Positions 19,208 to 41,156 of a stretch of DNA of 64,000 nt are shown here, piece by piece. The notes under the pieces were generated by a model that was given only the letters and a program-made list of their open reading frames with translations, ran no database searches and was not told the DNA's origin. Origin of the DNA: a virus (lineage: Duplodnaviria; Caudoviricetes); the IMG/VR virus record IMGVR_UViG_3300031851_000001; one strand, given 5' to 3'. Positions within the stretch are counted from its first letter, which is position 1, and each line of letters starts with the position of its first letter. Position numbers and translations under genes: made by a program.

Positions 19208-20401
19208 ATGACAATGAAATGTATAGTTCCGGAAACCGGGATTACAATTAATCCTATTGGCGAAATGGTTATATGTTGTGCAGGTGACAACGTAGCGCTT
19301 TCGCATATCAAAGATGTGGATAACCTTACCGAGTTTTTTAATGGCGAAGTGTATGATAAACTTCGTTCTGACTTCAAAGAAAAGTCGTTTCCAAAACAAT
19401 GTAACGTATGTTGGAGACATTGGGATGCAGGTCGTATTGCTAGGTTTGACTCATACAACCGATTTAGCTTTCCTACATATGAAGAAGATTTAGCGTCTGA
19501 CGTTATTCCTATTAGATTTCTTGAGATCACAACAAGTAACATATGCAATCAAATGTGTGTCTCTTGTTCTGGTAAGTATTCTTCTAAGTGGTCGCCATAT
19601 GAAAAAATGGCGGTTGAGTCTGGTCTAACATGGCGCAACGAAAACCACAAGTTCCATACCAAAATGTATAAAATGACTAAGGCTGATGTTGATAAGGTAT
19701 TGGATATAGTTCCACACCTGCAGCATTTAACTATTAAGGGTGGTGAACCTTTTGCTGATCCTAATAACATAAAGATACTAAAAAAGTTAGCCGAAACTAA
19801 TCCCGGCTGCAGGGTAGAGATATGCACAAACATGCAACTCGTAACTAACACAGTTATTGAAATATTGCATCAGATAAACGAAGTACATATTCAAGCAAGC
19901 ATTGACGGCATACATGAAATGTATGATTGGATACGTGGAGGTAACTTTAAGAAGACAGTAAACAACATTAAGAGATACCACGAACACTCTGGACGTAAGG
20001 TAGTTATTGTATCAACAGTATCTGTATATAATTGGATGCACCTTCCAGAACTTATCGACTATTGGAAAACTATTGAGGGCGTGGATAGAATTAGCATGGC
20101 TAACCTTGTTACATTCCCTAAATATTGTAGTCCATGTTACCTAGACGAACACCACATAGAAGAAGGCAGAAACAAACTATTTGATTACTTAAAAGATTGG
20201 GATAAAAAGTCAGACACTTATTATACGACAGACAACCTACATTTATCAGGCATGAATAATGTATTGAGTGTGGTACAAGGTGATGATGATATTAAACTAA
20301 TACAAAAACGAATGATACAATGGATCGACTTTTGTTTAGTCGCTCGTGAAAACAATGAAGATATATATGAGTTAGCACCATACTTAGAGGATTACAGATG
20401 A
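19208..20401 (+). CDS. Radical SAM protein with N-terminal SPASM/twitch-like domain
   Basis: CNQMCVSC (CxxxCxxC), GGEP; N-terminal C...CC...CxxC. Confidence 0.88.
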   Translation: MTMKCIVPETGITINPIGEMVICCAGDNVALSHIKDVDNLTEFFNGEVYDKLRSDFKEKSFPKQCNVCWRHWDAGRIARFDSYNRFSFPTYEEDLASDVIPIRFLEITTSNICNQMCVSCSGKYSSKWSPYEKMAVESGLTWRNENHKFHTKMYKMTKADVDKVLDIVPHLQHLTIKGGEPFADPNNIKILKKLAETNPGCRVEICTNMQLVTNTVIEILHQINEVHIQASIDGIHEMYDWIRGGNFKKTVNNIKRYHEHSGRKVVIVSTVSVYNWMHLPELIDYWKTIEGVDRISMANLVTFPKYCSPCYLDEHHIEEGRNKLFDYLKDWDKKSDTYYTTDNLHLSGMNNVLSVVQGDDDIKLIQKRMIQWIDFCLVARENNEDIYELAPYLEDYR

Positions 20402-21468
20402 GTTGGGATTTTTTTCAATCCAATAGAACAATACCATCTCAACATAAGATGGTTTCTTGTTATGCTCCATTTAATCATATGCGAATCCGTAGAAACGGAG
20501 AAATGCACCCATGCTGTTTTTCAACACAAAAAACACGTTGGAAAAAAGATGAAGTTAGCCTAAAAGATTATTGGTTTGGAGAGTTAAACCAATCATATCA
20601 AGAAGCATTATTAGAAAATACTCTACACGACGGTTGCCAAAAAGTATGCGGTGCTAGAATAAATTCTAAAATAAAGCCGCCTATCAATGAATACGATCAT
20701 AATGTTGGTGACGATAGACTTAAACACGCATTATCATTATCTTATCCTAGAATTTTTGAGTTCGAAATATCAAATCTTTGCAACATGGCTTGTCCAATGT
20801 GTATGGGTGAGTTAAGTTCAAAGCATATGTTAGGACGCGATAAAAACTTAAAAGTTTATGACCCAAACACATTTGACGATGATGAAAATTTACAATCGTT
20901 ACTAGAAGAATTTAAAGAATTTGTTCCACACCTTGATGAAATAAGATTTGTTGGTGGAGAACCTTTTTCGCACAAAGCGTTATATAAACTATGTAGTATG
21001 ATTGCTAAAATTAATCCTAGTATGCGTATTCAAGTGTGTACTAATGGAAGTGTGTTTAATAAAAAAGTTCTTAAAATATGTAATGAAAATAATTTAAAGT
21101 TAACCATATCTGTTGATACAGTTGTTCCAAAAGAATATAGCCAGATTAGAATTGGTGGTAATTATGAAGAGACTTATAATAATGTGAAGAGATTTGGCGA
21201 ACGTTGCAAAGTTACAGTAAACGCGACTCTTATGTCTATAAACGCATTGAATATAGACAAGTTATTTGAATATGCTATGGAAAATGAATATGGTGTTTTC
21301 ATAAACACTTATGATAGATCAGGCAGAAGTCATACTGAAGATTGGAGCATAAGTACAATGAAAATGGTTGACAGGCAAGCTTCAGTTGACAGGCTTACTG
21401 CTTTATTGGGTGATGAAAATTATAAGAGACACTATGAAGAAATTAGAAAGATTATTAATTTGTTATGA
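20398..21468 (+). CDS. Radical SAM protein with N-terminal SPASM/twitch-like domain (paralog)
   Basis: CNMACPMC, GGEP; CYAPF...HPCC...CQKVC. Confidence 0.88.
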   Translation: MSWDFFQSNRTIPSQHKMVSCYAPFNHMRIRRNGEMHPCCFSTQKTRWKKDEVSLKDYWFGELNQSYQEALLENTLHDGCQKVCGARINSKIKPPINEYDHNVGDDRLKHALSLSYPRIFEFEISNLCNMACPMCMGELSSKHMLGRDKNLKVYDPNTFDDDENLQSLLEEFKEFVPHLDEIRFVGGEPFSHKALYKLCSMIAKINPSMRIQVCTNGSVFNKKVLKICNENNLKLTISVDTVVPKEYSQIRIGGNYEETYNNVKRFGERCKVTVNATLMSINALNIDKLFEYAMENEYGVFINTYDRSGRSHTEDWSISTMKMVDRQASVDRLTALLGDENYKRHYEEIRKIINLL

Positions 21469-22713: not shown

Positions 22714-24425
22714 AGAGAGTTATTTTCACAACATATGACGATATAAAAAAAGAGAACGACCAGTGGGGAATGAATTATTACGCTACTGAGTCTATTAATG
22801 AATATTTTGATAGGTTAATCTCAAACAAAGAAGAGTATGCCAACAGTCTAATCAATGTTGAGTTTAAGTTTTATCACAATACGATGAAAGACTTTAATGT
22901 TGACACTGAACTAGAGTTTACAAAGGCTAATATATACAAACACCATATTATGGCAGAGTTAGCTGAAGAGTTTGACGAAGTTATGTATGTAGATATGGAT
23001 GTTGTTTTCAATACGGAAAAGAACGTGTTTGATGAATTGGATTTGAGTAAAGGCATTCACATCCAAGTACAGACACACGAAGTTACAAGCAAGGACATTG
23101 AAGGTGTTATGTTTGAAAATATCGGAAACCGTTCTCCTACATTGAAATACCACATCACAAAAGATTTATTAAATGGTAAAGATAACCACGTAATGAATAC
23201 TGGTATTATGATCGCCAAGTCTGAGCATATCAAGAAAATTAAATACATTGAAAGACTTCCTAGCATCATAAAAAGAATACAAGATATGCGAGTTTCTGGA
23301 GTAAGCAATGATGAATACAAATTTCTTAGAATGTATTACTACCCAAACAACGAAAGCATTTTTTCGTATATCATGGAAAGTACAGACATTCCTTATGAGA
23401 TTATGGATGAGAGATGGCACAAGATCATCAAAGATACCCCGCAACCATTGGATTGGGATAACATTGAGATTGCGCATTTCATAGGTAAAAAGTTTAGCAC
23501 GTTCTTCCAAGATAAGACAAAGTTAATATATTCTATTTACATTGAAATACCCGATGAACACTTAGATAATCCAAGAGGACCTAAAGACGATCCTGTAAAC
23601 AAAAGCAAGCGAACTAAAGAAAGGCTGGCTGCATATAAAGATAAGCTGTACGACAACCATCTTGAATATGCACATGCTCAAAAGGCAACTTATATTCACT
23701 TTGGCAGAGATGATAGATACGAAAAGTTTCGTGCTAGGTTTCCCGATTTGTCAGAATATGATATAATCAATTTATATAAGGTATATCTTTTAGATTACAT
23801 GACGCACTATTATGATTTAGTATTGTACGTGGACTTTGATGTTTGGTTTGATAAATTCGAAGTTAACACCTTTGATTGGTTAATGGGTGAGCATCTGCTT
23901 TGTTGTGATGCAGCTAACGCTGAAAATTCTGGCGTAAAACTTTGGGATGCATTATATCTTAAAAACTATGATAAAGACTTTAGGTCACCAGAAGCCAAGT
24001 ATTGGAACTGCCATGCAATGTTATCTGAAGAAGATGTTGAGCCTGACAATTATGTTTTCAATACAGGTATTATGATGGCAAGTAAAAAGGTTATGGAACA
24101 GTTAGATTACTTTTCTGATATAGATGAAACCCTTGCTATGATGAAAGAACTAAAGGAAGACTCCATATATCCACCACAAGTGCAAGAATCATTTGGGTAC
24201 GACAATGAAACAATCATGGCGTACAAAGTTAAAATGAATAATGTGTTTGTGCAAAGATTATCTCAGACGTGGCATCTTAAACATATGAGCGAAAAAATTC
24301 AAGCGTTTGATAAAAATACAAATGAATATGAAATTAGTAAACAAAAACTAAAAGCAGAAATGGCTGAACACAATACAGTAATGGTTCACATGATTTCTAA
24401 GAACTTTGGATTACTGGTCGAGTAA
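22683..24425 (+). CDS. Tandem two-domain GT-A glycosyltransferase-like protein
   Basis: Duplicated YVDMDV/YVDFDV, NTGIM/NTGIM, NNESI/DNETI. Confidence 0.7.
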   Translation: MHTLYGDRRMKRVIFTTYDDIKKENDQWGMNYYATESINEYFDRLISNKEEYANSLINVEFKFYHNTMKDFNVDTELEFTKANIYKHHIMAELAEEFDEVMYVDMDVVFNTEKNVFDELDLSKGIHIQVQTHEVTSKDIEGVMFENIGNRSPTLKYHITKDLLNGKDNHVMNTGIMIAKSEHIKKIKYIERLPSIIKRIQDMRVSGVSNDEYKFLRMYYYPNNESIFSYIMESTDIPYEIMDERWHKIIKDTPQPLDWDNIEIAHFIGKKFSTFFQDKTKLIYSIYIEIPDEHLDNPRGPKDDPVNKSKRTKERLAAYKDKLYDNHLEYAHAQKATYIHFGRDDRYEKFRARFPDLSEYDIINLYKVYLLDYMTHYYDLVLYVDFDVWFDKFEVNTFDWLMGEHLLCCDAANAENSGVKLWDALYLKNYDKDFRSPEAKYWNCHAMLSEEDVEPDNYVFNTGIMMASKKVMEQLDYFSDIDETLAMMKELKEDSIYPPQVQESFGYDNETIMAYKVKMNNVFVQRLSQTWHLKHMSEKIQAFDKNTNEYEISKQKLKAEMAEHNTVMVHMISKNFGLLVE

Positions 24426-25269
24426 GTGGACTCCAAGGAGTATAATGTCCTTTTATACTATTCTTATAACTATCATCCTGCTTCATAAGATGTAATGTTA
24501 AACCAATCTTAGAACCCTCAAATTCGGTTGGCGCATGCAGCACTGATGTATCTTGTACGATTGCATGGCAATGTTCCCACGGAAATATATTTTCAATACT
24601 TAACCCATCGTATACAGATAAAGGAATATGTTTAGGCATGATTTCTTTCAACTTATGTACGTCTCTATTACCAACATCAATATTATCCACTCCATAATAT
24701 GAGTAGTTCATATGCTTAATCACGTTATGGTAATTTGCAAAGGAAGCTATTTCCCTTCCCTTCATAAACATAGTTGCATGTCCACGATACCTTTGATGGA
24801 ACGTTACATAAGTGCCGGGACCATTAATTTCTAGTGGTATAATAATATCTTTGTATGGTCTGTAACCATCTAAGTGCGTAACGGCGTCGGTATGTAAACC
24901 ATATGGCTTTACAGCTTTAAACATTTGATCGCCAACACTCATAGGATCATCGCCAGCTATATCCGAATAGAATATTGTATCCTCACCAAACTCTTCATAT
25001 ATTTTTGGTCTGATAATATCTGATATTTCTTTGATAAGCATTGGATATACTATTCTATAAATATGTTCGTTAATTATTTCGCCATTTGTATTAAAGTGGT
25101 AATCCCATGCACATAGTAATTGTTCTCTTTCCGTGTCTGTTATGAAATCATGAATTACATAGGAAGGCTCGTTTTGATCTTTGAACATCTTAACGTTTGG
25201 GTTATGTATAATGTCCATAGTTCTGAGTTCATCATCAGAAAAAGGTCTATCAGTTCTGTATATATTCAT
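24397..25269 (-). CDS. 2OG-Fe(II) oxygenase-like protein
   Basis: LHTD (HxD) and distal LHAPT His. Confidence 0.6.
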   Translation of the reverse strand: MNIYRTDRPFSDDELRTMDIIHNPNVKMFKDQNEPSYVIHDFITDTEREQLLCAWDYHFNTNGEIINEHIYRIVYPMLIKEISDIIRPKIYEEFGEDTIFYSDIAGDDPMSVGDQMFKAVKPYGLHTDAVTHLDGYRPYKDIIIPLEINGPGTYVTFHQRYRGHATMFMKGREIASFANYHNVIKHMNYSYYGVDNIDVGNRDVHKLKEIMPKHIPLSVYDGLSIENIFPWEHCHAIVQDTSVLHAPTEFEGSKIGLTLHLMKQDDSYKNSIKGHYTPWSPLTRPVIQSS

Positions 25270-25729
25270 TAGGTATTGCCTCTATTACTTCTTGCCAAGT
25301 TTCTCTCATTACAAATTTCATCTGCAGCCTTTCATACGGTACTGGGTCAACCCAATGTCTTATATCGCCATTGTTAATTGCCATTGCTTCGTAAGGTACG
25401 TTGCCTACACCTTCAATACCTATAACTGGCGTTTGATCCATTAAGTTTATTTGTATAGATGTAACATGATCTTCATCATAGTGTATAGGTATGTCGTTAT
25501 TAGTTTCTAACCAATAAAACCTTGGTCTATTATCAAACTGTTGAATATTCAAAGCCTCTGCTACTTCATTTATATTAGGGTCCTCACCTTGTTGCGGATA
25601 AGTCTGCCACCATTTATCTACTTGGTCAAACTGTTTCCACTGATACCAGCGTCCGGTATTTCGCCATGCCTCTGCTACTTCTCTAAAGCGCGGTTTATCT
25701 ATTTTAAAGTTAAGATGTAGTAAATTCAT
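25250..25729 (-). CDS. 2OG-Fe(II) oxygenase/cupin-like protein
   Basis: IPIHYD, distal RHWV, R-x-x-x-K ending. Confidence 0.65.
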   Translation of the reverse strand: MNLLHLNFKIDKPRFREVAEAWRNTGRWYQWKQFDQVDKWWQTYPQQGEDPNINEVAEALNIQQFDNRPRFYWLETNNDIPIHYDEDHVTSIQINLMDQTPVIGIEGVGNVPYEAMAINNGDIRHWVDPVPYERLQMKFVMRETWQEVIEAIPNEYIQN

Positions 25730-26153
25730 ATTCAGATAATTCGTTAAAAATTTCTATTGCTTCATTAATTGGTTCTTGGAATGATATATTGATACTATAC
25801 CTAGTATGTTCGTTATTAAATACAGCATGCCTAGATTGAGTATTCAACAACATTACACCACTAAACGTTTCATCCTCAAAAGAGCAGGGTGCATAATGGC
25901 CAGATAGCGGATAGCTTAGTGCAGCGTTTCGTTTACCATCAACATGCCAATCCATAACGTCGTGTGGTTCTAACTTTATGAGTGCAACATTACGATTTGC
26001 AAATTTTAATCCTGTTTGATAATAATACATTCCCATACGATTACCTGATACTGTGGATTGATATGGTGTCCACTCTTTAACACTTTCAGCCATGTTTAAA
26101 AAATCGTTGTGACGCTCTTCCGATAAAAACCGTGGCAATTCATAATAATTCAT
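25710..26153 (-). CDS. 2OG-Fe(II) oxygenase/cupin-like protein
   Basis: DWHVD, RHAVFN, RYSINISF. Confidence 0.7.
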   Translation of the reverse strand: MNYYELPRFLSEERHNDFLNMAESVKEWTPYQSTVSGNRMGMYYYQTGLKFANRNVALIKLEPHDVMDWHVDGKRNAALSYPLSGHYAPCSFEDETFSGVMLLNTQSRHAVFNNEHTRYSINISFQEPINEAIEIFNELSEYEFTTS

Positions 26154-26869
26154 TTGTAAAATCCTTTAAATATTCTAAATATTTCTTGGTGACCTTTTGC
26201 ATTAGGGTGTCTATCTTGTTTGCTAATCATACAATCCCCTTGCATTAATTCTTCAAAACAACAACCGCCATATTGCCAGTGAAAAGGCCAACCAAACATA
26301 TTGCCTTTTCTCTTGTGTATCATATTAAAGTAATTAGAGTCTAACATATCATATACATCTTTGTTTTCAACAAGTGGATATATCATTTGAAACACAATAA
26401 GTTCTATATTTTTGTGTGAACATAAATCCATTAATACATATAATTGAAATAGAGTTTCTTCTACAAGGCATTTTTTAGTATTATCATCAAATGGAATAAT
26501 ATTAAAATAATCGTCGTGTCTATTTGTCCATTTTTGATGTTTGGCTTTTTGTTCTTCAGACACGTCATTATCCCATACAACATTTTTGTTTGTGTTTGGA
26601 TTAAAACGATTGTCACCGGGAGTAGAAAATCTATACCACTGAGATAAGGCTATAATACATCTAGTAGTATTACATGTATATATTTGTTTTATTGCTCTCT
26701 TTATTATTTCTACATTACCGAGAGCATCTCCATAAACGTTAACAACGTCCCAGTCATAATAATCTTGTAATAACTCATCCCACTTTGGATATGATGTGTC
26801 GTAGCTGGGGTGGATCCTTGGAAAATAATTTCTGTTAGACCAACTGCAGCCAGACAGTATTGTTTTCAT
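26150..26869 (-). CDS. SGNH-hydrolase-like protein
   Basis: SGCSWS N-terminal block and DRHPN C-terminal block. Confidence 0.55.
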   Translation of the reverse strand: MKTILSGCSWSNRNYFPRIHPSYDTSYPKWDELLQDYYDWDVVNVYGDALGNVEIIKRAIKQIYTCNTTRCIIALSQWYRFSTPGDNRFNPNTNKNVVWDNDVSEEQKAKHQKWTNRHDDYFNIIPFDDNTKKCLVEETLFQLYVLMDLCSHKNIELIVFQMIYPLVENKDVYDMLDSNYFNMIHKRKGNMFGWPFHWQYGGCCFEELMQGDCMISKQDRHPNAKGHQEIFRIFKGFYK

Positions 26870-27360
26870 AACATAGTGCCGACGATATGAGTTCGAGATG
26901 ATGTAGAAGCATTAACAAATGTGTGAATGTTTGTTGTGTCTACCTCATAAACACTGCCATCTGCCGGCAGCCTAAAGATTTCATCGTTCATAACAAAGAA
27001 GTTATTATCGTTGGTTTCAATTGGTATATGTATTCTTTTAGTAAAGTCTTTGTGATAAGTATAACATGTTTTACCATTCAATATCATAACCCTACTATAT
27101 GCCAGATTGTATTTTCCTAACAAAGAGTTGATATATGGCAATGCAAAATGAAACTCAACCAAGTCTTTGGCTGTTACTTTCGTTTGTCTTTCCCAAGCGT
27201 TAGTTTGGTTTGTTGCAGGTACTATATGTTTAAATACACTATCTTCAACACGTTCACCTTGAAGTGCGTAAGTCGTTTCATGGTGAATAAGAGATAACTC
27301 ACTCTTAATTTTTTCGAGATCAACTGTATCAATTACTCTATAATAAGATTGTCTATCCAT
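26866..27360 (-). CDS. Aspartyl/asparaginyl beta-hydroxylase-like 2OG oxygenase
   Basis: YHKD...RIHIP, HTFVN, RTHIV. Confidence 0.75.
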   Translation of the reverse strand: MDRQSYYRVIDTVDLEKIKSELSLIHHETTYALQGERVEDSVFKHIVPATNQTNAWERQTKVTAKDLVEFHFALPYINSLLGKYNLAYSRVMILNGKTCYTYHKDFTKRIHIPIETNDNNFFVMNDEIFRLPADGSVYEVDTTNIHTFVNASTSSRTHIVGTML

Positions 27361-27797
27361 GCTTGTTCGCTCACTGTAAAATCATTTGGATGGTTAATTG
27401 TTATAGCGGTTTGTGTACCCGTAATTCCAGAAACGGAATTTTTAACGTGCGAGTCAATAAGATACCATTCTCCTGCTACCGCTGTAATAGAAGACGTAAC
27501 ATTATCGTCAGCATCGTGAGCATGTAATATTGTGCCTACAGGATCAATAATATATAATATTCTCCAACGCGACTCCGTTGTAAAAATTCTACTATTTTTA
27601 GTCGAGTCTGACTCCTGATAACGAGTGTGTGAGTTATTTAAAATCTCTTCTAATATTTGTTCGTCTACTAAAGTTGATGTTGCGTCTGCAAGAGTCCAAG
27701 CAGTGTAATTGATAATTGAACTATCGTATTCAATTTCTAGTGCGTTGTGGATTGGCGAAGGCATTGTCAACTGTGGTAAGTTTAGTTTTTTAATCAT
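27333..27797 (-). CDS. Degenerate cupin/2OG-oxygenase-like protein
   Basis: GEWYLID..VKNSV fold pattern, metal ligands not conserved. Confidence 0.4.
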   Translation of the reverse strand: MIKKLNLPQLTMPSPIHNALEIEYDSSIINYTAWTLADATSTLVDEQILEEILNNSHTRYQESDSTKNSRIFTTESRWRILYIIDPVGTILHAHDADDNVTSSITAVAGEWYLIDSHVKNSVSGITGTQTAITINHPNDFTVSEQAWIDNLIIE

Positions 27798-28321
27798 TTT
27801 AGTTCTCCGAATGGAATGTCGTGTATCCCCATATGAAAGACGATACGTTCCTTTGTTGGCGATTTTACACCATGTGGTTTTTTTGTATTAAGTACAGTCA
27901 TAGTGTCATATACTATGGAGTCTCTTGTATTCCCATCATCAACATATAATTCGCCAGTATTTTCAGTTACAGGTATCAGTACTGAGCAATGGCTCTTAAC
28001 ATCAACATGAACTGGCAACTCTCCACCTTCTAATACTCTAAAAAAGTTGCAGCGGAATTCTTGTGGTCTTATTTCAAATGTATTCCATATTTTTTTAATC
28101 AACCTAAGAAGTGGTCTATTAAAATTGTGTATCTCTTGGACAAAGAACTTATTCATTTCTTTACCACCTGTTGCATCACTAACATATTCTGAATATAGTT
28201 TATTACTATCAGTCCATTCGCCAGTTATATAATTTTCCCAAAAAATTGGGTCAACCTTATAATCAGTTTTTATAAACGAATCATTTATCCATGTTTTATC
28301 CATGTAAATCTTCCTGACCAT
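27794..28321 (-). CDS. 2OG-Fe(II) oxygenase-like protein
   Basis: LPVHVD, KPHGV, RIVF. Confidence 0.7.
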   Translation of the reverse strand: MVRKIYMDKTWINDSFIKTDYKVDPIFWENYITGEWTDSNKLYSEYVSDATGGKEMNKFFVQEIHNFNRPLLRLIKKIWNTFEIRPQEFRCNFFRVLEGGELPVHVDVKSHCSVLIPVTENTGELYVDDGNTRDSIVYDTMTVLNTKKPHGVKSPTKERIVFHMGIHDIPFGELK

Positions 28322-29099
28322 TAACTGATATAATAATATGTGACCGTGTAGTCGTACCTTTGTTCCAAGCCGAATGCCTCATGCCTTGATTTAAAAACCA
28401 TAGTGATCCCGGTTCCATAGTCTGATTTATTTTGCTCCCATCTTTATCTATACAATAAAATCCACAATCATCATTTGTTGTAATCGGAATATGAAACCGA
28501 ATAGAATAATCGGTATTGTAGTCGATATGCTCGGCAACGTAAGCACCCGGCTCCATAATAGCAATTCTTGCTCGTGTAACTTCGCCTTTAAATGTTTTAA
28601 GTATTTCTTCTAGGTAAGTACCCTTTACCCAGTCTTTCATTAAGTTATAGTGTCTTTCGTCAAGTCTGCTTTTAGGTATTTTCTTTTCATAGATCCGATC
28701 TTCTTCATCTGGGTTATATTTAGTCAAAGCAATTTGTTTATATGGCGATCCATTAACTTCAAATTTGCCCTTGCCATCTTCTACAATATAATCTTCAAAT
28801 GGCTTTACATAGTTTCTAAAATCCCAAGCCATACGCTTGCCGCCTAAACCATTACGGAACTCAGACTCTTTTACATCGTTATCTTGTAAGAATTGATAAG
28901 CATCTTCAATCGTATCAAATTTTAAACCAAAAGCTTTTTGTAACTTTGCAGTTTTTCCACCAACCAAATCTCCATAGCCATCTTTTTCTTTTAGATCGTC
29001 ATTTTCTGGTGGCATATTACGAACAACTTCAATGATTTTGTTTACATCAAAATGTGCGTCAAGTTTTTGAAACGGTGGCAGCTCATATCTGGTTTTCAT
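28296..29099 (-). CDS. Aspartyl/asparaginyl beta-hydroxylase-like 2OG oxygenase
   Basis: AEHID...RFHIP, RHSAWN, RSHII. Confidence 0.75.
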   Translation of the reverse strand: MKTRYELPPFQKLDAHFDVNKIIEVVRNMPPENDDLKEKDGYGDLVGGKTAKLQKAFGLKFDTIEDAYQFLQDNDVKESEFRNGLGGKRMAWDFRNYVKPFEDYIVEDGKGKFEVNGSPYKQIALTKYNPDEEDRIYEKKIPKSRLDERHYNLMKDWVKGTYLEEILKTFKGEVTRARIAIMEPGAYVAEHIDYNTDYSIRFHIPITTNDDCGFYCIDKDGSKINQTMEPGSLWFLNQGMRHSAWNKGTTTRSHIIISVNGQEDLHG

Positions 29100-29623
29100 A
29101 ATTTTGTATATCCTTTATATTGTAAACATCCATGACCGTCACAAACCGGTACTTTTTTGTCATGCATATTCCATATTGTATCTGTTGCCATTGCCACTTT
29201 ATTTATAAACTCTCGCAGCATTCTGGGGTTCTTTTCTCTACTTATAAATGCTGAGGTATATCCGAGTTCTTTTGCAAACTTCAATTGGTCTTTGACGGTA
29301 GATATAATATGGCTTCTTGCTAATTCTCTACCGATACGACGCAATTCTTGGTTTTCCCAATAACGATTTAATATTCTAACCTCACCCTTTTCATAATATT
29401 CAGGTCTATGCCATATAGAACTAAATCCTACTATGTCGTCACCATTTTGTAATATAGAAACACAATCAAACTGAAACCAGTCTAAACCATCATAATTAAC
29501 GTGGTCATAAACTGTTTCTGATAATTGCTTTATAATGTCTGGCCTATCCTCTGGAAAAAAGCTAGTGACACTACATTCTGAGTTCAGCAATGTCATTCCA
29601 AAACTCTTTCTTTTTCTTACCAT
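29096..29623 (-). CDS. GNAT-like fold protein (tentative)
   Basis: IVGFSSI...VRILNRYW pattern. Confidence 0.4.
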   Translation of the reverse strand: MVRKRKSFGMTLLNSECSVTSFFPEDRPDIIKQLSETVYDHVNYDGLDWFQFDCVSILQNGDDIVGFSSIWHRPEYYEKGEVRILNRYWENQELRRIGRELARSHIISTVKDQLKFAKELGYTSAFISREKNPRMLREFINKVAMATDTIWNMHDKKVPVCDGHGCLQYKGYTKL

Positions 29624-30173
29624 GAATTAATAAATGTAATCTGTCTTCGTCAGAATTATTTTCAACCATATGTGGGTAGTGAATGTTTAAAACAAACGAT
29701 GAACCGGGATGATATGGTATTTCCTCGCCGTCCATAACAAACTTACTTCCCTTTGGATATGTAATAGATATATTAAGAGGATCCAGCCAGTTATGTTCTG
29801 GCACATCGATATGTTCAGCAATATAACCACCAGATTTTATAACAAGATATCTGACATCATCTATTCGAGCATATGGTAATGAATTAACAAAATCCATAGT
29901 TGCAGGACATTGCTTTCCAATTTCAGTAATATCCTTTTTAACTTTACGTCCATATTCCCAATGACTATTTGTATTATCAGAAGCAGTGCCGTATAATGTC
30001 ATAGCAAACCAATCCTTATGACCATCCTCTGGTCTATGGATAACTAATGAGTCTTTGACTAATTTATATTCTTTTTCTATATCAGAGCAAGGAACATTAA
30101 AGTTCATCTTTACCCAATGTGCGTCGCTACTTCTTTGCATGATGATCACTGTGGTTTCCTTCAAGTGGAGCAA
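29571..30173 (-). CDS. Aspartyl/asparaginyl beta-hydroxylase-like 2OG oxygenase
   Basis: AEHID, PHMVEN, RLHL. Confidence 0.75.
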   Translation of the reverse strand: MLHLKETTVIIMQRSSDAHWVKMNFNVPCSDIEKEYKLVKDSLVIHRPEDGHKDWFAMTLYGTASDNTNSHWEYGRKVKKDITEIGKQCPATMDFVNSLPYARIDDVRYLVIKSGGYIAEHIDVPEHNWLDPLNISITYPKGSKFVMDGEEIPYHPGSSFVLNIHYPHMVENNSDEDRLHLLIHGKKKKEFWNDIAELRM

Positions 30174-30693
30174 AAAGATTTATCCACCATTTATTAGCAG
30201 CGCCGTCGTCGTCATGGGCTACCAAATTAAGTAATCCGTAAAACATAAATGATGTTGGTAATAATAACAATAAATGCGCAAGAAATATTGGATTTATATA
30301 AAATGCTACAATATAAGTTATAACGAAAACATATAATTTGTTCTTGTGGAAAAACATAACTCTTGGATTATTATAAAGGTCCTTTACAAACTTTCTTGGT
30401 ATATGCTTTACTTTATAAGCCGAAAACAATACTTCATACCATTTTTTATATTTTGGACTATGTGGGTCTAACTCAGTATCAGCATATGCGTGATGCATAC
30501 GATGAACGCCTGCCCAACTTAATGGCGAACATGCGCTAGCCATAGTACCTAAGTAAATTATTATTGTTTCTAATATTGGGTGCAGTTTTATTTGCTTATG
30601 TGATATGCATCTATGATACCCTATCGTCAACCCGACAGCAGCTACTACCCAATAAAATATATAAAAGTGGACTAAAAACATAATTATCCTCAA
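30127..30693 (-). CDS. Membrane fatty-acid desaturase (delta-9-like)
   Basis: His boxes YHRCISH, HRMHH, HSDHH; hydrophobic segments. Confidence 0.85.
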   Translation of the reverse strand: MRIIMFLVHFYIFYWVVAAVGLTIGYHRCISHKQIKLHPILETIIIYLGTMASACSPLSWAGVHRMHHAYADTELDPHSPKYKKWYEVLFSAYKVKHIPRKFVKDLYNNPRVMFFHKNKLYVFVITYIVAFYINPIFLAHLLLLLPTSFMFYGLLNLVAHDDDGAANKWWINLFAPLEGNHSDHHAKK

Positions 30694-30720
30694 AAACCTT
30701 CATGTAGTTATTTATATCTA

Positions 30721-30861
30721 TTGACATTGTTTGAAAACCGTATATAATAGATTTATCTACTAAACAATAATAATAGTTGTTATAATGGCTGTAACAAAAT
30801 AGTAACAGTATTTTTATTAAAATGGAAATCTATTGACATTTTAGCTCTACTGTATTATATA
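30721..30861 (+). promoter_or_regulatory. Two tandem sigma70-type promoters upstream of tmRNA
   Basis: TTGACA(30721)-16-TATAAT and TTGACA(30833)-17-TATATA. Confidence 0.7.
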
Positions 30862-30867
30862 TAACTA

Positions 30868-31150
30868 GTGAACGTTGAAATGACGTGAATACGGATCGGA
30901 CCTCGGGGCAGTACCGAGCATCTCCACCAAATTTACTCTGTAGGGTAAAAACTGATAATTTACTTTGTAGAGTAAATTTGATGGGGATGAACAAGGATCG
31001 ACGGACGGAATAGCTTAATGGAGTTCATCGGGTGATCGCGTATAGATCAATTAAACTAAATGCAAATGAAAATTTCGCACCATCTGGATTTGCTCTAGCA
31101 GCATAATCACAGGGGGGTTGTCCACTTACCTAGCAACAGAAAAGTGGTAC
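30868..31150 (+). ncRNA. ssrA: Circularly permuted (two-piece) tmRNA, alphaproteobacterial type
   Basis: Acceptor piece with T-arm CTCGG-GGCAGTA-CCGAG and CATCTCC-A-CCA (ends 30929); intervening hairpin 30930-30982; coding piece starts GGGGATG (30983) giving G3-U70; tag ORF 31062-31106 ANENFAPSGFALAA*. Confidence 0.93.
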
Positions 31151-31181
31151 TTAATAAAACTATTACAAGGAAAAAGGTAAC

Positions 31182-31970
31182 ATGGGTAAATTCTTATTAA
31201 CAACGGCACTAACTTTGGTAGCCGGTGCAGCGATTGCACAGGAAGTAACCGAAGCACCAGTAGGATTAACTGGTAAAATTGAAACAGTAATTGCTGAAGG
31301 TGCTGGTGGAGATTGGGGTGCAACGTCATCTTTTGATCTTGGCGTATCTGCAGGATCTGGCTTAGCATCAGGTTCTATGTCTTTCGTCGTTGACTCAAAT
31401 AACGATTTGGCTTTAGACGAATATTCAATCGGTACATCAATCGGTGGAACTGAATTGTCATTTGGAGACCAAGGCAATATTTGGATTGACACAGAAAACG
31501 GTTCTTCTATTGAAGAAGCAAAGATTGCTGATGAAAGCATTCAAGCAACTATCGCAGGTGTATCAGTAGCAGCCGGCTTAAACATGGATGATTTAACTGA
31601 CATTCAAAACGTACAAGCTGGTTACGGTATTCCATTAGGAATTGCTAACATCAACGCAGTAGGTGACTATAACCTAAACAGTGAATCATGGATTGTAGCA
31701 GGTCGCGCAGACACAGACGGTATGTTGGAAAATGTACGTATCGGTGGTGCAGTATCATACGGTTCAATTTCAGAAAAACTTGGCTTTGAAGCTGACGCTA
31801 CAGTAGGACCATTAACTGGTTATATTGGCGGTGACCAAGATGATCTAATGAAAGATGCAGGCGTTAATGGTGAAGTTGCTGTTGCAGGTATCGATGTAGA
31901 AACTAAATTGAACTATAACTTTGACAGTGAAGAATTAACACCATCAGTTGGTTTAAGTTTCAACTTCTAA
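31182..31970 (+). CDS. Outer-membrane porin-like beta-barrel protein
   Basis: Signal peptide, alternating amphipathic strands, C-terminal VGLSFNF. Confidence 0.75.
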   Translation: MGKFLLTTALTLVAGAAIAQEVTEAPVGLTGKIETVIAEGAGGDWGATSSFDLGVSAGSGLASGSMSFVVDSNNDLALDEYSIGTSIGGTELSFGDQGNIWIDTENGSSIEEAKIADESIQATIAGVSVAAGLNMDDLTDIQNVQAGYGIPLGIANINAVGDYNLNSESWIVAGRADTDGMLENVRIGGAVSYGSISEKLGFEADATVGPLTGYIGGDQDDLMKDAGVNGEVAVAGIDVETKLNYNFDSEELTPSVGLSFNF

Positions 31971-31992
31971 GTTTATAAAAAATCAATACTTT

Positions 31993-32016
31993 AGAGGGGC
32001 TTCGGCTCCTCTTTTA
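31993..32016 (+). terminator. Intrinsic terminator with C(UUCG)G loop
   Basis: AGAGGGGC-TTCG-GCTCCTCT followed by T-run. Confidence 0.85.
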
Positions 32017-32021
32017 GTTTG

Positions 32022-32029
32022 TATAAATA
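32022..32029 (+). promoter_or_regulatory. T4-type late promoter
   Basis: TATAAATA upstream of heme oxygenase. Confidence 0.6.
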
Positions 32030-32062
32030 AAAGGTACACCATAAAATAGAGGGCATTATATT

Positions 32063-32605
32063 ATGACTAATAAATTGAAGCAACTCACATGGGCACATCA
32101 CCAAGCAGCTGAACGTAGAAAATTTGCTAAGCAACTAATTAGTGGTGGCATAGACCCATTCGTATATTATAAGTTTTTAAATTGTCAGTACTTAGTATAC
32201 AGACTATTAGAAGACATTGTAATTATTCCACCAAACCTTACTGCAATTTATAGAGCTCCGCGTATTCTTCAGGATATGGATGAGTTATCAGAAATTTATG
32301 GATTTGACGATATTGATAGTTATCCAGAATCAGTTGGCAGATGTATGACACACATGCAAGGATTGGCTGATGCAGACGATAACGATAGTCTATTAGCACA
32401 TATGTATGTAAGGCATTTTGGTGAACTTCATGGTGGACAAATCATTAAAGCTAAGACACCCGGAAAAGGGATTATGTATGAATTTGAAGGTGACACAAAA
32501 GTACTTATCGAAGAATTTAGAAAACTATTGCACGATGGTATGGAAGTAGAAGCTAAGAAATGCTTTGATTTCGCATCAGAATTATTTGACGAATTATCCA
32601 AATAA
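32063..32605 (+). CDS. hemO: Heme oxygenase
   Basis: LKQLTWAHHQAAE proximal His helix; AHMYVRHFGELHGGQII distal helix. Confidence 0.9.
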   Translation: MTNKLKQLTWAHHQAAERRKFAKQLISGGIDPFVYYKFLNCQYLVYRLLEDIVIIPPNLTAIYRAPRILQDMDELSEIYGFDDIDSYPESVGRCMTHMQGLADADDNDSLLAHMYVRHFGELHGGQIIKAKTPGKGIMYEFEGDTKVLIEEFRKLLHDGMEVEAKKCFDFASELFDELSK

Positions 32606-32608
32606 CTA

Positions 32609-32637
32609 TTGACATTCTTAGCTATTTGTTATAAAAT
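32609..32637 (+). promoter_or_regulatory. Sigma70-type promoter related to the repeated cassette
   Basis: AACTATTGACA-17-TAAAAT. Confidence 0.7.
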
Positions 32638-32671
32638 ACTAATATAAATCAAAACATATAAGGAGAGTAAA

Positions 32672-32839
32672 ATGCAAGATGACGCATTAGATACAGTTAA
32701 CCTTAAACCAAAACCGCGCGCTGAACGAATGCTTAAAAGTAACAGCGCACGTCGGCGGCGAAGTGTACTCAAATCAATTAGAGAAACACGTTTGTTAAAT
32801 GAATTCGCAAAACTCCGAAGATTAAGAAAAAGCAAATGA
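32672..32839 (+). CDS. Small Arg/Lys-rich protein (55 aa)
   Basis: Manual translation MQDDALDTVNLKPKPRAERMLKSNSARRRRSVLKSIRETRLLNEFAKLRRLRKSK; SD AAGGAG; ATGA overlap with pcyX. Confidence 0.65.
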   Translation: MQDDALDTVNLKPKPRAERMLKSNSARRRRSVLKSIRETRLLNEFAKLRRLRKSK

Positions 32840-33522
32840 CTCCATTATGGGATAAATTGAATGATTACGCTGCGCATATTCGTGGCAAGTTTCAAGACAA
32901 CTTTACTGAATATGAAGAGCCTGCTATGAACGATCTTTATTTTAAAGATTGGGATGATAGGTTTTGGCATTCACCCATTGTTAATAAAGCACATTTAAAG
33001 ACTATCGTACCAGCAGATGGTAAAGGTCTTTGGTTGATGCACGTTAATGTTTTCCCTAAGGCTGGTTTAGAATTGCCAATCTTAGGGTTTGACATCGTTG
33101 CTGGACCAAAGAAAATTACTGGTTCGTTTATGGATTTCTCTCCGCTGCATGGCTTTGAGCATCCATATAGTGATTACATGGCTAATAAGGTTAAAGACTT
33201 AGAATGGAATAAACCAAGAGAACTACCAGATTGGGCAAAAGAAATATTTTCAAAATCAATGATTGCAGTTGGAAATATTAATACTGATAAAGAATTAGAC
33301 CAATTCATTGCTGTAACATCAGATCTAGTTAATTATTATTTAGATAATTTAAAAGATATGACTTATGTATCAAATCGCGATACATCACCTTTATTAAACA
33401 AATATTGTGTTAACCAAAAGAAAAATCCGCACCTTCATCGGTCAATACTTGCTATGGGTATTACTGAAGAAGACAAAGACGATTATGTAAATAATGTTCT
33501 TTTTGCGGAGATTAACGGTTGA
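32836..33522 (+). CDS. pcyX: Ferredoxin-dependent bilin reductase, PcyX/PcyA-like
   Basis: LMHVNVFP (His69), LGFDIVAG (Asp86), DFSP, YCxNQKKNPH. Confidence 0.85.
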   Translation: MTPLWDKLNDYAAHIRGKFQDNFTEYEEPAMNDLYFKDWDDRFWHSPIVNKAHLKTIVPADGKGLWLMHVNVFPKAGLELPILGFDIVAGPKKITGSFMDFSPLHGFEHPYSDYMANKVKDLEWNKPRELPDWAKEIFSKSMIAVGNINTDKELDQFIAVTSDLVNYYLDNLKDMTYVSNRDTSPLLNKYCVNQKKNPHLHRSILAMGITEEDKDDYVNNVLFAEING

Positions 33523-33866
33523 CACTTTACGGTTGTTGTGATACAGTAGATATAAATCAAGGTTATGAGTATATAGAAATTGGCGGTTATCATTTTAAGG
33601 TAACTGTCACGTACTGCTCTAACTGTGGGTCAATGAAATCAACTTCAAATATTAAGGAAAGTAAAATGGCAGGCGACACTATTATTATGGAAAAAGCAGG
33701 TAAAACACTTAAGGCTGAATACTTCAGTACAACTGATGGCAGCGGATGCCGGTTTTTTATTAATGAAGAATTTATTCAAGAAGAACTATATGAAGGTAAG
33801 TCAATTCATTGGGCAGAAAGCGCGGCTGAAAACTGGCTTAGTGGGGTTAAATCATTGAATGGATAA
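33519..33866 (+). CDS. Hypothetical protein (start may be 33666)
   Basis: CC/CxxC in the N-terminal part; SD before internal ATG 33666. Confidence 0.5.
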   Translation: MTLYGCCDTVDINQGYEYIEIGGYHFKVTVTYCSNCGSMKSTSNIKESKMAGDTIIMEKAGKTLKAEYFSTTDGSGCRFFINEEFIQEELYEGKSIHWAESAAENWLSGVKSLNG

Positions 33867-34122
33867 AGGCAATTCCCAAGAAAAAGTTATTAACCCTCGT
33901 ACGCCTGAAAAGGTACATCACGAGATTTCAAGCATGTTATCAAATGGAGTTAATTATATTGATGCGTTAGTTGAATACGCGCGACAAAATGGATTGGAAA
34001 TAGAGGCAGTAGCCGATATAGTCAAAAAGTCTTCTATCCTAAAAGAAAAAGTTAGGACTGAAGCAGTGAAAATGAAAATGGTGATAAAAGATGATCAAGA
34101 CATCACAGAGCTTTGCGAATGA
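33859..34122 (+). CDS. 33: Late promoter transcription coactivator (T4 gp33)
   Basis: YIDALVEY...LKEKVRTEA; canonical 33-59-32 gene order. Confidence 0.85.
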   Translation: MDKGNSQEKVINPRTPEKVHHEISSMLSNGVNYIDALVEYARQNGLEIEAVADIVKKSSILKEKVRTEAVKMKMVIKDDQDITELCE

Positions 34123-34693
34123 GGAATCATTTAACTGTTACGTAAAATACCTTGCAATGAAAAAGCATTTTACTACAGATGGATATGATTATCATAAGTA
34201 CAGAGGAAAAATTAGAGCATCGTTTGAGACATACCGTACTCGGAACGATGTTTTCTTTTTTCACAAACTCGCTCAAAAGGAAGACCCTGAAAAATTGTTA
34301 ATGGCTAACATGATAGTCAAACCAAACATATGGATTAGGGAAATCGTTGAGCAAGACGGAGAAGATCGTTATGTGGAATGGACCAAGAAACGGGATTCAT
34401 TATCACGCGTCGTTAAAGACGATCTTAATAAACTTAGAGACGAATACCAAGATAACTTTGTGTCTGTTCAAGGACAGCATCCAGCTATTATGACTCTCTA
34501 TATTCAACGGCAAATAACACTTGAGACGTTTACTATTTTAACCCATTGCGCAAATATTTTTTCGTATTGGGACCAAAAAGTAGTTGACAAAATCGTAGCA
34601 AGTGATATAATTAGATTATCTAAGAAGTACTATCCTTTCTTAGAAATCGAACAGAAAAAGTTTAAAAATATTATACGTGAACACTTTTTCTAA
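34091..34693 (+). CDS. 59: Helicase loader (T4 gp59)
   Basis: YLAMKKHF...YDYHKYRGK, ITLETF. Confidence 0.9.
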   Translation: MIKTSQSFANEESFNCYVKYLAMKKHFTTDGYDYHKYRGKIRASFETYRTRNDVFFFHKLAQKEDPEKLLMANMIVKPNIWIREIVEQDGEDRYVEWTKKRDSLSRVVKDDLNKLRDEYQDNFVSVQGQHPAIMTLYIQRQITLETFTILTHCANIFSYWDQKVVDKIVASDIIRLSKKYYPFLEIEQKKFKNIIREHFF

Positions 34694-34701: not shown

Positions 34702-34774
34702 GATGGTCGGCTTAACGACAAATACATCGCAATATAAACAAACGCTATACACAGCAAAATTAGGAGATATAACC

Positions 34775-35713
34775 ATGTCAATGGATTTCAACGCACTTAA
34801 GAAGAATCGTTCAGCTTCTCTAAACAAATTGAACTCACAGCTCGAGAAAATTCAAACTAAGAGCTATTCAGATCCCAACGAAGGTAAAATGTGGAAACCA
34901 ACGCGCGATAAAGCGGGTAACGGTTTTGCTATTATTCGATTCTTGCCAGCCGCGCAAGGTGAAGAAATGCCATTCGTTCGCATCTGGGACCACGGTTTTC
35001 AAGGACCAACAGGATTATGGTATATTGAAAACTCACTTACGACCGTTAACCAAGACGATCCAGTATCCGAGTACAACTCAAAGTTGTGGAACTCTGGTCT
35101 CGAGTCTGATAAAGAGTTAGCTCGTAAACAAAAGCGTCGACTAAAGTACGTGGCAAATATCCTCGTCGTAAAAGACGGTGCAAACCCTGAAAATGATGGT
35201 AAAGTCTTTATGTACCAATTTGGTAAAAAGATTTTTGACAAACTAAACGATCTGATGAACCCAACGTTCGAAGACGAGAGACCAGTCAATCCATTTGATT
35301 TCTGGGAAGGCGCTAACTTCCGTTTGAAAATTCGTAAGTTTGAAGGATATCCTAACTATGACAAATCTGAGTTTGACTCACCATCGGCTATTGCTGATGA
35401 CGACTCAGTAATCGAAGGTATTTGGAACCAACAGCACAAGTTGCAAGAGTTGGTAGATCCAAAGAACTTCAAATCATACGCAGAGTTGAAAACAAAACTT
35501 TATCGTGTACTTGCTTTAGGTGAAGAAGCTGCAGTGCCAGCCACCGCTGAGGAAAATGATGATTTGGATTTGAGCAGCTTTGGTAATACTAGCAAGTCAG
35601 CTCCAGAACCAACCTTGAAAGAAGCAATGCCTGAGGCAAGCACTTCGCAAGGAATGTCAATGGACGATGACGACGATGATCTATCTATTTTTAAGGAACT
35701 AGCAAATGGCTAA
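34775..35713 (+). CDS. 32: Single-stranded DNA-binding protein (T4 gp32)
   Basis: GNGFAIIRFLP, WYIENSLTT, YPNYDKSEF, acidic tail; start moved to ATG 34775 (SD GGAG). Confidence 0.95.
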   Translation: MSMDFNALKKNRSASLNKLNSQLEKIQTKSYSDPNEGKMWKPTRDKAGNGFAIIRFLPAAQGEEMPFVRIWDHGFQGPTGLWYIENSLTTVNQDDPVSEYNSKLWNSGLESDKELARKQKRRLKYVANILVVKDGANPENDGKVFMYQFGKKIFDKLNDLMNPTFEDERPVNPFDFWEGANFRLKIRKFEGYPNYDKSEFDSPSAIADDDSVIEGIWNQQHKLQELVDPKNFKSYAELKTKLYRVLALGEEAAVPATAEENDDLDLSSFGNTSKSAPEPTLKEAMPEASTSQGMSMDDDDDDLSIFKELANG

Positions 35714-39926: not shown

Positions 39927-41156
39927 ATGTTAAGTTTTAAAAATTACCTCGCTGAGGAAAAGAATGTTCATATGGAGCATCTTGAAGACTCGATTTTAAA
40001 CCTTGGTGTTGATGGTACACGTTCTGCTATTAATTTCCTTAGAGCATTAAGAGATATGCTACAAGGTAGTTCAAAATCTAAAGTTAACGTATCAGTTAAA
40101 TGGGACGGAGCACCTGCTATATTTGCGGGCGTTGATCCAAGCGACAAAAAATTCTTTGTTGCTAAAAAGGGTATTTTTAATAAGAACCCTAAAGTATATA
40201 AAACCGCCGCTGATGTCGATGCAGACACCAAAGGCGATTTAGCAGTGAAATTAAAACTAGCCTTGGAAGAGTTTCCTAAACTTGGTATCAAAGGTGTAGT
40301 ACAAGGTGACTTTCTATATGATAAAAAAGATCTCAAGATATTGGACATTAAGGGTGAACCGCATGTTACTTTCCATCCTAATACGATCGTATACGCGGTA
40401 CCTTCGGCATCAGACCTCGGTAAACAAATACTCAAATCCAAAATCGGAGTGGTCTGGCATACGGTATACAGAGGACGTAGCTTTGAAGAAATGTCTGCAA
40501 GTTTTGGAGAGGAGATTGCATCAAGCCTCAAAACAACGAAAACGTGCTGGTCGGTAGACGCGGTATATAGAGACGTTTCAGGCACGGCAACGATGACGGC
40601 TGCAGAGACTGAAAAGGTTAATAAAATATTATCGGCTGCAGGAACTTTATTTCAAAAAATAAAACCAGCAACTCTAAACGGCGTAGCAAACAATCCTGAC
40701 ACGCTAATGCGGACAAAAACATTTGTTAATACTAAAATTAGAGCTGGTGAAAAGATACGTAACACTCGTATGTTTGTAAAAGATTTAGAAAAGTATATTG
40801 ATGATATATACGAAAAAGAAGCTGGCAAACGAAAAACCGATAAAGGTAAAAGAGCACAACGAGTTAAAAAAGATGCTACATTAGAATACTTTAAGAAAAC
40901 ATCAACAAAAGAATTAGTTGCTATGTTTGATTTGTATAACTTGCTCATAGATGCCAAACTTTTAATCATAAAGAAACTCGACAAAGCTGGTGGTTTAACA
41001 ACGTTCCTTAAAACAGCTGACGGGCTTCAAGTAACAGGGCAAGAAGGCTTTGTTGCTATTGACCACATGGGTAAAACCGCAGTTAAGCTTGTTGACAGAC
41101 TTGACTTTAGTAATGCTAATTTTAACGACAAGTATATTAAAGGGTGGGACAAATAA
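39927..41156 (+). CDS. Putative internal head protein with ligase-like KxDG motif
   Basis: N-terminus MLSFKNYLAE; SVKWDGAPA, QGDF, EGFV, KLVDR. Confidence 0.6.
   Translation: MLSFKNYLAEEKNVHMEHLEDSILNLGVDGTRSAINFLRALRDMLQGSSKSKVNVSVKWDGAPAIFAGVDPSDKKFFVAKKGIFNKNPKVYKTAADVDADTKGDLAVKLKLALEEFPKLGIKGVVQGDFLYDKKDLKILDIKGEPHVTFHPNTIVYAVPSASDLGKQILKSKIGVVWHTVYRGRSFEEMSASFGEEIASSLKTTKTCWSVDAVYRDVSGTATMTAAETEKVNKILSAAGTLFQKIKPATLNGVANNPDTLMRTKTFVNTKIRAGEKIRNTRMFVKDLEKYIDDIYEKEAGKRKTDKGKRAQRVKKDATLEYFKKTSTKELVAMFDLYNLLIDAKLLIIKKLDKAGGLTTFLKTADGLQVTGQEGFVAIDHMGKTAVKLVDRLDFSNANFNDKYIKGWDK

Follow-up and report, generated by a model that had tools for sequence, protein, structure and literature searches.

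A circularly permuted, alphaproteobacterial-type tmRNA gene with an intact tag frame in an uncultured marine T4-like myovirus

The stretch of viral DNA analysed in this study (64,000 nucleotides, hereafter the window) carries a gene that, judged from its sequence, is in all likelihood a functional phage-encoded circularly permuted tmRNA of the alphaproteobacterial type; the phage itself, a marine T4-like myovirus that has not been cultured, has Melnitz and Mosig (pelagimyophage) among its relatives. The gene very probably works in trans-translation by the standard two-piece mechanism, with host enzymes and host SmpB. It is the counterpart of the published Melnitz and Mosig ssrA genes, both of which lie at the same locus upstream of gp33-gp59-gp32, and is thus a new member of a described marine-myophage type rather than a new kind of system. 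What is modestly new is a tag lineage that looks phage-specific, the tight linkage to a porin-like/HemO/PcyX-like cassette, the presence of micro-ORFs in the intervening segments of relatives and a recurrent RNA end at 31002/31003.

When the window was scanned with ARAGORN, a permuted tmRNA (tmRNA*) with the tag ANENFAPSGFALAA* was called. Two Rfam models also matched the region, alpha_tmRNA (RF01849) with 104.5 bits, about twice its gathering score of 50 (E = 1.8e-27), and the newer tmRNA_permuted (RF04321) with 100.7 bits against a cut-off of 47, the latter match covering exactly 30868-31106. A first-pass annotation, made from the letters alone, had described a two-piece, circularly permuted tmRNA encoded by the phage, with a degradation tag of its own, and had proposed ARAGORN or the alpha_tmRNA model as a check; its identification is borne out by ARAGORN and by both Rfam models. 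The gene order is the permuted one, with an acceptor piece ending in CCA followed by an intervening segment and a coding piece starting with GGGG. In the same search series, the RF01849 score of the window tmRNA (approximately 105 bits) was far below the 284 bits of a cellular alpha tmRNA, indicating that the phage RNA is divergent. No match was obtained by blastn with the window tmRNA against 50,697 phage records; because the RNA is too divergent for such a search, relatives were sought with a pattern search and covariance models.

The elements that had been read in the first-pass annotation, including the acceptor end, the T-loop, the G3-U70 pair, the intervening hairpin and the tag frame, were all recovered. 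The acceptor piece (30868-30929, plus strand, approximately 62 nt) comprises the P2 5' strands, the T-arm, the acceptor 3' strand, the discriminator A and an encoded CCA. Its end, CATCTCC-A-CCA, is read directly at 30919-30929, with the acceptor 3' strand itself at 30919-30925, and the 5-bp T-arm (30902-30918) closes a 7-nt T-loop of the alpha type, GGCAGTA (30907-30913). The coding piece (30983-31151, plus strand, the last position being the model end) contains the acceptor 5' strand, the P2 3' strands, PK1, the tag frame and a 3' pseudoknot. It opens with GGGGAUG (30983-30989), which pairs with CAUCUCC to form the 7-bp acceptor stem joining the two pieces, and in this stem G30985 (G3) and U30923 make up the G3-U70 alanine identity pair. 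The two pieces are also held together by an outer P2 helix between 30868-30873 and 31023-31028; the P2 3' strands span 31002-31028, and the middle portion of P2 is poorly defined. The PK1 pseudoknot (31029-31049; stem 2, 31033-31037 with 31045-31049) lies upstream of the resume codon GCA at 31062, from which the tag frame (31062-31106) reads ANENFAPSGFALAA with an LAA end and a TAA stop. The gene is completed by an H-type pseudoknot at 31115-31147, with stem 1 formed by 31122-31127/31142-31147 and stem 2 by 31115-31118/31128-31131. At 31112-31117, the G-run of this stem 2 has one G fewer in four of four RNA-library runs and in most relatives, so that either the strains differ here or the window contains a homopolymer-length error.

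Between the two pieces lies an intervening segment of 53 nt (30930-30982), whose hairpin extends the acceptor stem and whose removal from the precursor is predicted. Folded with its flanks, the segment forms a hairpin of 22 bp, G-U pairs included (-25.5 kcal/mol, z = -6.2; 0 of 200 shuffles fold as well), close to the roughly 21 bp of the earlier description.

Two sigma70 promoters had been claimed upstream of the gene, and both are present. The distal one (TTGACA-16-TATAAT, 30721-30748, plus strand) is sigma70-like with 12 of 12 consensus matches, and its target is uncertain. The proximal one (TTGACA-17-TATATA, 30833-30861, plus strand) was read directly and would start transcription at approximately 30868. 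It misses the scanner's rule on the final base of the second hexamer, yet both of its hexamers are position-conserved in 11 relatives with divergent spacers, making it the better-supported tmRNA promoter. The distal promoter sits 120 nt upstream of the tmRNA's own promoter with no ORF in between. The idea that it makes a separate, terminated small RNA is unsupported; no significant structure or convincing terminator was found between the two promoters (30755-30832, MFE fold, z = -0.98). A partly conserved inverted motif, CTGTAAC...GTAACAG, is located at 30791-30811, and similar GTGTRAYA motifs occur in the relatives. On the minus strand, a run of overlapping genes (24397-30693) diverges from the tmRNA promoter region and includes Asp/Arg beta-hydroxylase or cupin-type (2OG-Fe(II)-like) oxygenases and a fatty-acid-desaturase-like protein; in Mosig, a similar 2OG-Fe(II) oxygenase run lies beside the HemO-FDBR pair. 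Downstream of the tmRNA, no terminator was found before the ORF at 31182, and the MFE fold of 31100-31185 likewise gave neither a terminator nor a significant structure.

A search of IMG/VR viral contigs with a T-arm and acceptor-core pattern matched 96 stretches, approximately 28 of which resemble the window tmRNA over most of its length with 70-83% identity. The RNA is present in at least 15 distinct relatives among the viral contigs. All of these relatives that are callable by ARAGORN share one tag family, AN[DEN]N[FYV][AK]PSG[YFL][AR]LAA. Covariation was counted in 13-15 distinct relatives, using Python pair counts on MAFFT alignments of both pieces, with the acceptor-stem pairs taken by alignment-free extraction. 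In the 13-15 sequences, acceptor positions 5/6 covary with 67/68 in eight complementary combinations and G3-U70 is invariant. All 13 of 13 sequences have a canonical T-arm (30902-30918), two pairs of which covary, and the outer P2 helix (30868-30873/31023-31028) shows compensatory changes among relatives. Stem 2 of PK1 is TGATC/GATCA in the window and TTGGC/GCCAA or TTGAC/GTCAA in relatives, and in the 3' pseudoknot, stem 2 pairs canonically in 13 of 13 and has two fully compensatory positions (G-C/A-U, 7:6; U-A/C-G, 7:6). In pairwise comparisons of 15 distinct relatives, the tag frame differs mostly at third codon positions: 528 of the differences are synonymous and 241 non-synonymous, whereas the two remaining frames of the tag region give 32/701 and 37/676; these counts are somewhat biased by the regular expression used for tag selection, of which the ARAGORN tag peptides are independent. 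The compensatory changes together with the third-position variation of the tag indicate that the gene is selected as a real tmRNA, both for its fold and for its encoded peptide.

The intervening segment is hypervariable among the relatives, measuring 25-167 nt, with a terminal stem closing it in every case; that of the window is simply a hairpin. In three contigs (L068:521-1013; L053:732-1224 and L062:41-533, both minus strand), the segment contains an ORF of 30-32 codons with a Shine-Dalgarno sequence, the encoded peptide being conserved among them (MKLEKLLLKY.EKIFGKIED.VNYLGGKKDK), and another group of relatives has a 43-codon ORF starting MNWDWHWISWFKG. Further relatives listed for ORFs in this segment are L001:1394-1886, L052, L063, L021 and L066, in the last of which a basic intervening ORF extends into the coding piece. 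For such segments, the tmRNA database paper lists one tRNA gene and one repeat element and makes no mention of ORFs.

To place the tag among cellular tmRNAs, a degenerate tag pattern was searched in one genome per species (185,579 species). The pattern matched only in three low-GC contigs (35-39% GC), all from one bin, 'Rhodobacteraceae bacterium Water_Bin34' (L099-L108). Eight alpha_tmRNA matches were found in this bin, seven of them over the family cut-off; one is strong (284 bits), and the others, of phage type, are weaker and lie on low-GC contigs whose coverage is very different. Evidently, myophage contigs from the window's lineage contaminate the bin. In 400 sampled alphaproteobacterial genomes, the cellular tmRNAs match the window only over a T-arm/acceptor core of 35-45 nt, and the sampled cellular tags are shorter and have no PSG core. 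From these comparisons, the tag lineage of the window looks phage-specific. The window gene and the cellular two-piece tmRNA of alphaproteobacteria, such as that of Caulobacter (Keiler, Shapiro and Williams 2000, cited through PMC9004378 and PMC11915505), have the same order of acceptor piece, intervening segment and coding piece, the T-loop consensus GGCNGUA, the G3-U70 pair, and tags with an ANDN-like start and a hydrophobic AA end. They differ in that the window tag has a PSG[YFL] insert of the phage lineage, absent from the cellular genomes scanned, and in that the phage gene has no dedicated terminator.

The window has a GC content of approximately 36% throughout and encodes T4-type topoisomerase II subunits, gp32, UvsX, a gp41-type helicase, gp59, gp33, a ribonucleotide reductase and four tRNAs; the phage is a T4-like marine myovirus. 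Metagenomes and viromes of marine origin from 14 studies contain the stretch nearly word for word, showing that the phage is widespread and its lineage abundant. Its closest isolates are distant, namely C48C1 by UvsX (65%), Melnitz by gp32 (53%) and Mosig by bilin reductase (36%). C48C1, considered as the closest isolate by UvsX, was rejected as a relative for the tmRNA, having no alpha_tmRNA. Directly downstream of the tmRNA lies a gene for a porin-like secreted protein (31182-31970, plus strand), which has no Pfam or PHROG match and was placed near porin families by protein-language features, a lead only. It opens a cassette (31182-33522) that continues with a heme oxygenase (HemO; PF01126), a PcyX/PcyA-like ferredoxin-dependent bilin reductase (FDBR; PF05996) and a small unnamed ORF, after which come gp33 (33859-34122), gp59 (34091-34693) and gp32 (34703-35713). 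The order tmRNA-porin-like-HemO-FDBR-orf-gp33-gp59-gp32 is kept in at least 12 distinct viral contigs with 38-98% protein identity. Elsewhere in the window, two auxiliary features were observed, a plus-strand cluster at 19208-21468 with two adjacent radical SAM genes, one with a SPASM domain, and a DUF6267 protein at 39927-41156 (377 bits).

Buchholz et al. 2022 (PMC9004378) reported an alpha-type two-piece ssrA from Melnitz, a myophage of OM43. That study found 133 unique tmRNAs among 18,146 isolate phage genomes; 53 were two-piece, and 50 of these came from phages of marine or aquatic origin. Of 47 Melnitz-like contigs, 17 had a permuted tmRNA. The premise of the first-pass annotation that phage tmRNAs are mostly one-piece, which fits the 2014 census of mycobacteriophages and Bacillus phage G (PMC4131195), therefore fails for marine phages, given the share of two-piece forms (53/133) in PMC9004378. 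The tmRNAs of the Bxz1 group of mycobacteriophages and of phage G are like that of the window in being phage ssrA genes without a phage smpB, but they are of the standard non-permuted form and belong to unrelated phage lineages and hosts (PMC4131195).

The Melnitz gene (EXVC044M, MZ577097.1; a phage of Methylophilales, OM43) scores 106.7 bits with RF01849 and 113.4 bits with RF04321, has a promoter TTGACA-17-TATAAA equivalent to the proximal promoter of the window, and, like the window's gene, precedes gp33, gp59 and gp32; the Melnitz genome is T4-like, of the Kyanoviridae type. Its tag also has 14 residues, ANDNYVPVDYALAA, with a core PVD in place of the PSG of the window. In Melnitz a glutamine riboswitch aptamer (52.8 bits) directly follows the tmRNA, whereas in the window this place is taken by the porin-like/HemO/FDBR cassette; no glutamine riboswitch (RF01739) was found in window positions 30400-31600 even at E <= 1. 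Such a riboswitch beside the tmRNA is common but not defining (PMC9004378). The two genes show no nucleotide similarity by blastn, and the gp32 proteins of the two phages are 53% identical. In the Pelagibacter phage Mosig (EXVC030M, MT647606.1), an annotated permuted tmRNA immediately precedes the gp33 homologue, after which come gp59 and gp32; this tmRNA scores lower with Rfam (67.6 bits) and has a short tag (GEDNFALAA, ARAGORN). Mosig also has a HemO and FDBR pair, located elsewhere in its genome near 2OG-Fe(II) oxygenases and structural genes, and its FDBR, 36% identical to that of the window, is the nearest FDBR from an isolate. There is no mention of tmRNA in a paper on pelagimyophage mining (PMC7029224) or in a paper on Shemin-pathway phages (PMC11480375), and a search of the open literature for a link between tmRNA and a phage bilin-reductase cassette found none.

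Based on these features, the following course is proposed. Transcription from the sigma70-type, presumably early promoter at 30833-30861 would yield a precursor starting near 30868. Host RNase P would cut 5' of G30983, and 3' trimming to the encoded CCA at 30929 would, together with this cut, excise the 53-nt hairpin, leaving a 62-nt acceptor piece and a coding piece held together by the 7-bp acceptor stem and the P2 helices. The RNA would then be charged by host AlaRS via G3-U70 and brought to stalled ribosomes by host SmpB, where translation would resume at GCA 31062 and add ANENFAPSGFALAA, the LAA end of which would mark the tagged product for ClpXP-type proteolysis. The likeliest benefit to the phage would be that ribosomes are kept free and truncated proteins are recycled during the degradation of host mRNA. 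The purposes suggested in the first-pass annotation, offsetting anti-phage RNA cleavage or redirecting tagging, are speculative. Compatibility with the SmpB, AlaRS and RNase P of the host is assumed in this scheme.

No SmpB was detected in the 64-kb window with a profile from four alphaproteobacterial SmpBs and tblastn (best E = 0.07-0.4), nor by the Pfam SmpB model in the complete Melnitz genome and four related contigs. From these results it is a fair inference that the phage tmRNA uses host SmpB, with the window search covering 64 kb of a genome that may be larger; completeness ratings of 23-29% for related contigs of 56-62 kb imply genomes above 200 kb. As for the host, its assignment to Alphaproteobacteria from the alpha-type tmRNA alone was rejected, since Melnitz has a tmRNA of this type and infects OM43.

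By marine metagenome matching, the stretch was found to be present in six RNA-library runs. Contigs (not reads) of four of these runs were placed on the region. In three runs, from three studies, they end at 31003, 31002 and 31003, approximately 20 nt into the predicted coding piece, where the tRNA-like domain meets helix P2a. One of them has adapter read-through directly at 31003, indicating that this is a recurrent cDNA end. From there the three contigs continue without a break across the tag frame and the 3' pseudoknot and reach into the porin-like ORF (to 31592, 31619 and beyond 31700), suggesting that some coding-piece RNA is co-transcribed with the downstream gene. In the same three runs no contig covers 30664-31001, which includes the acceptor piece, and such gaps in contig coverage prove nothing; a fourth run, prepared with oligo-dT, contains a contig spanning 30500-31204, which may derive from DNA. 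On our reading, the dominant RNA would begin not at the start near 30868 but no more than 20 nt from the predicted RNase P site at 30983. In standard second-strand synthesis the first 10-20 nt of an RNA are often lost, so the ends at 31002/31003 are compatible with a 5' end at 30983. Equally possible causes are a stop of the reverse transcriptase at the tRNA-like domain and a separate cleavage. The RNA contigs thus point weakly to processing of the precursor near 30983. In addition, the coding piece and the porin-like gene are probably transcribed together in part, and a portion of the RNA from the tmRNA region may act as an mRNA leader.

These observations could be joined into a wider reading, which we put forward as speculative and, taken as a whole, rather unlikely. 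The tmRNA would be the processed head of an early operon, with RNase P cutting at its G1 and its coding piece staying at least partly fused to the cassette mRNA; the phage-specific PSG tag would have evolved within phages for phage-directed tagging; and the intervening segment would serve, in the relatives, as a niche for conserved micro-ORFs that have ribosome-binding sites of their own.

Among the alternatives to a working tmRNA, the one that survives best takes the tRNA-like part mainly as a processing and stabilising leader of the porin-like/HemO/PcyX-like operon, in which RNase P makes the 5' end of the mRNA and trans-translation is secondary or lost. Such a role would account for the missing terminator between the tmRNA and the ORF at 31182, for the RNA contigs that extend unbroken from 31003 through the tag region into this ORF in three studies, and for the adjacency of tmRNA and porin-like gene in most relatives. 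Against it stand the tag peptide, conserved with variation of the synonymous type, and the context of PK1 and the resume codon, conserved with covariation; the tmRNA is also retained where this operon does not follow it, in Melnitz and Mosig, which have no such cassette directly downstream, and in the relative L091, which has no porin-like gene. We therefore regard this explanation as improbable, although a leader role and a rescue role could coexist.

A second alternative, which appears very improbable, is a decoy role, in which the RNA would titrate host SmpB or block trans-translation of the host in some other way. It draws on mycobacteriophage DS6A, whose TLD-only RNA was reported to be inhibitory when expressed in E. 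coli, with inhibition of the endogenous tmRNA by such a molecule (PMC4131195, PMC11915505), and on the finding of no phage SmpB, by which the phage RNA must compete for that of the host. The DS6A RNA has no tag frame (PMC4131195), in contrast to the complete one in the window. A pure decoy needs no mRNA-like domain, and the maintenance of a complete one across the relatives, with PK1, resume codon, 14-codon LAA tag, stop and 3' pseudoknot, counts against this explanation.

Finally, passive carriage of a host fragment with no phage function, as an att-site remnant at ssrA or a recent capture, is suggested by the many among the 96 acceptor-pattern viral matches that have no coding piece and resemble integration-site fragments at contig ends, but its probability is close to negligible, given that in the window both pieces are intact and the gene lies deep in a T4-like replication module at a locus common to Melnitz and Mosig, that the divergence within phages is accompanied by compensatory changes, that matches to cellular alphaproteobacterial tmRNAs are limited to the 35-45-nt T-arm/acceptor core, and that the tag type occurs in no cellular genome save the low-GC contigs of one contaminated bin.

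A phage-encoded permuted tmRNA of the described marine type thus remains the preferred reading of the gene. It extends a published pattern, in which marine T4-like phages of streamlined heterotrophs carry a permuted tmRNA at a fixed locus without SmpB. The linkage to the HemO/PcyX pigment cassette provides a second genomic marker for these still host-less phages, and the phage-specific tag together with the RNA evidence makes the gene a reasonable candidate for a first functional test of a phage two-piece tmRNA. The recurrence of tmRNA in such phages points to a recurrent need for managing stalled ribosomes or truncated proteins during infection.
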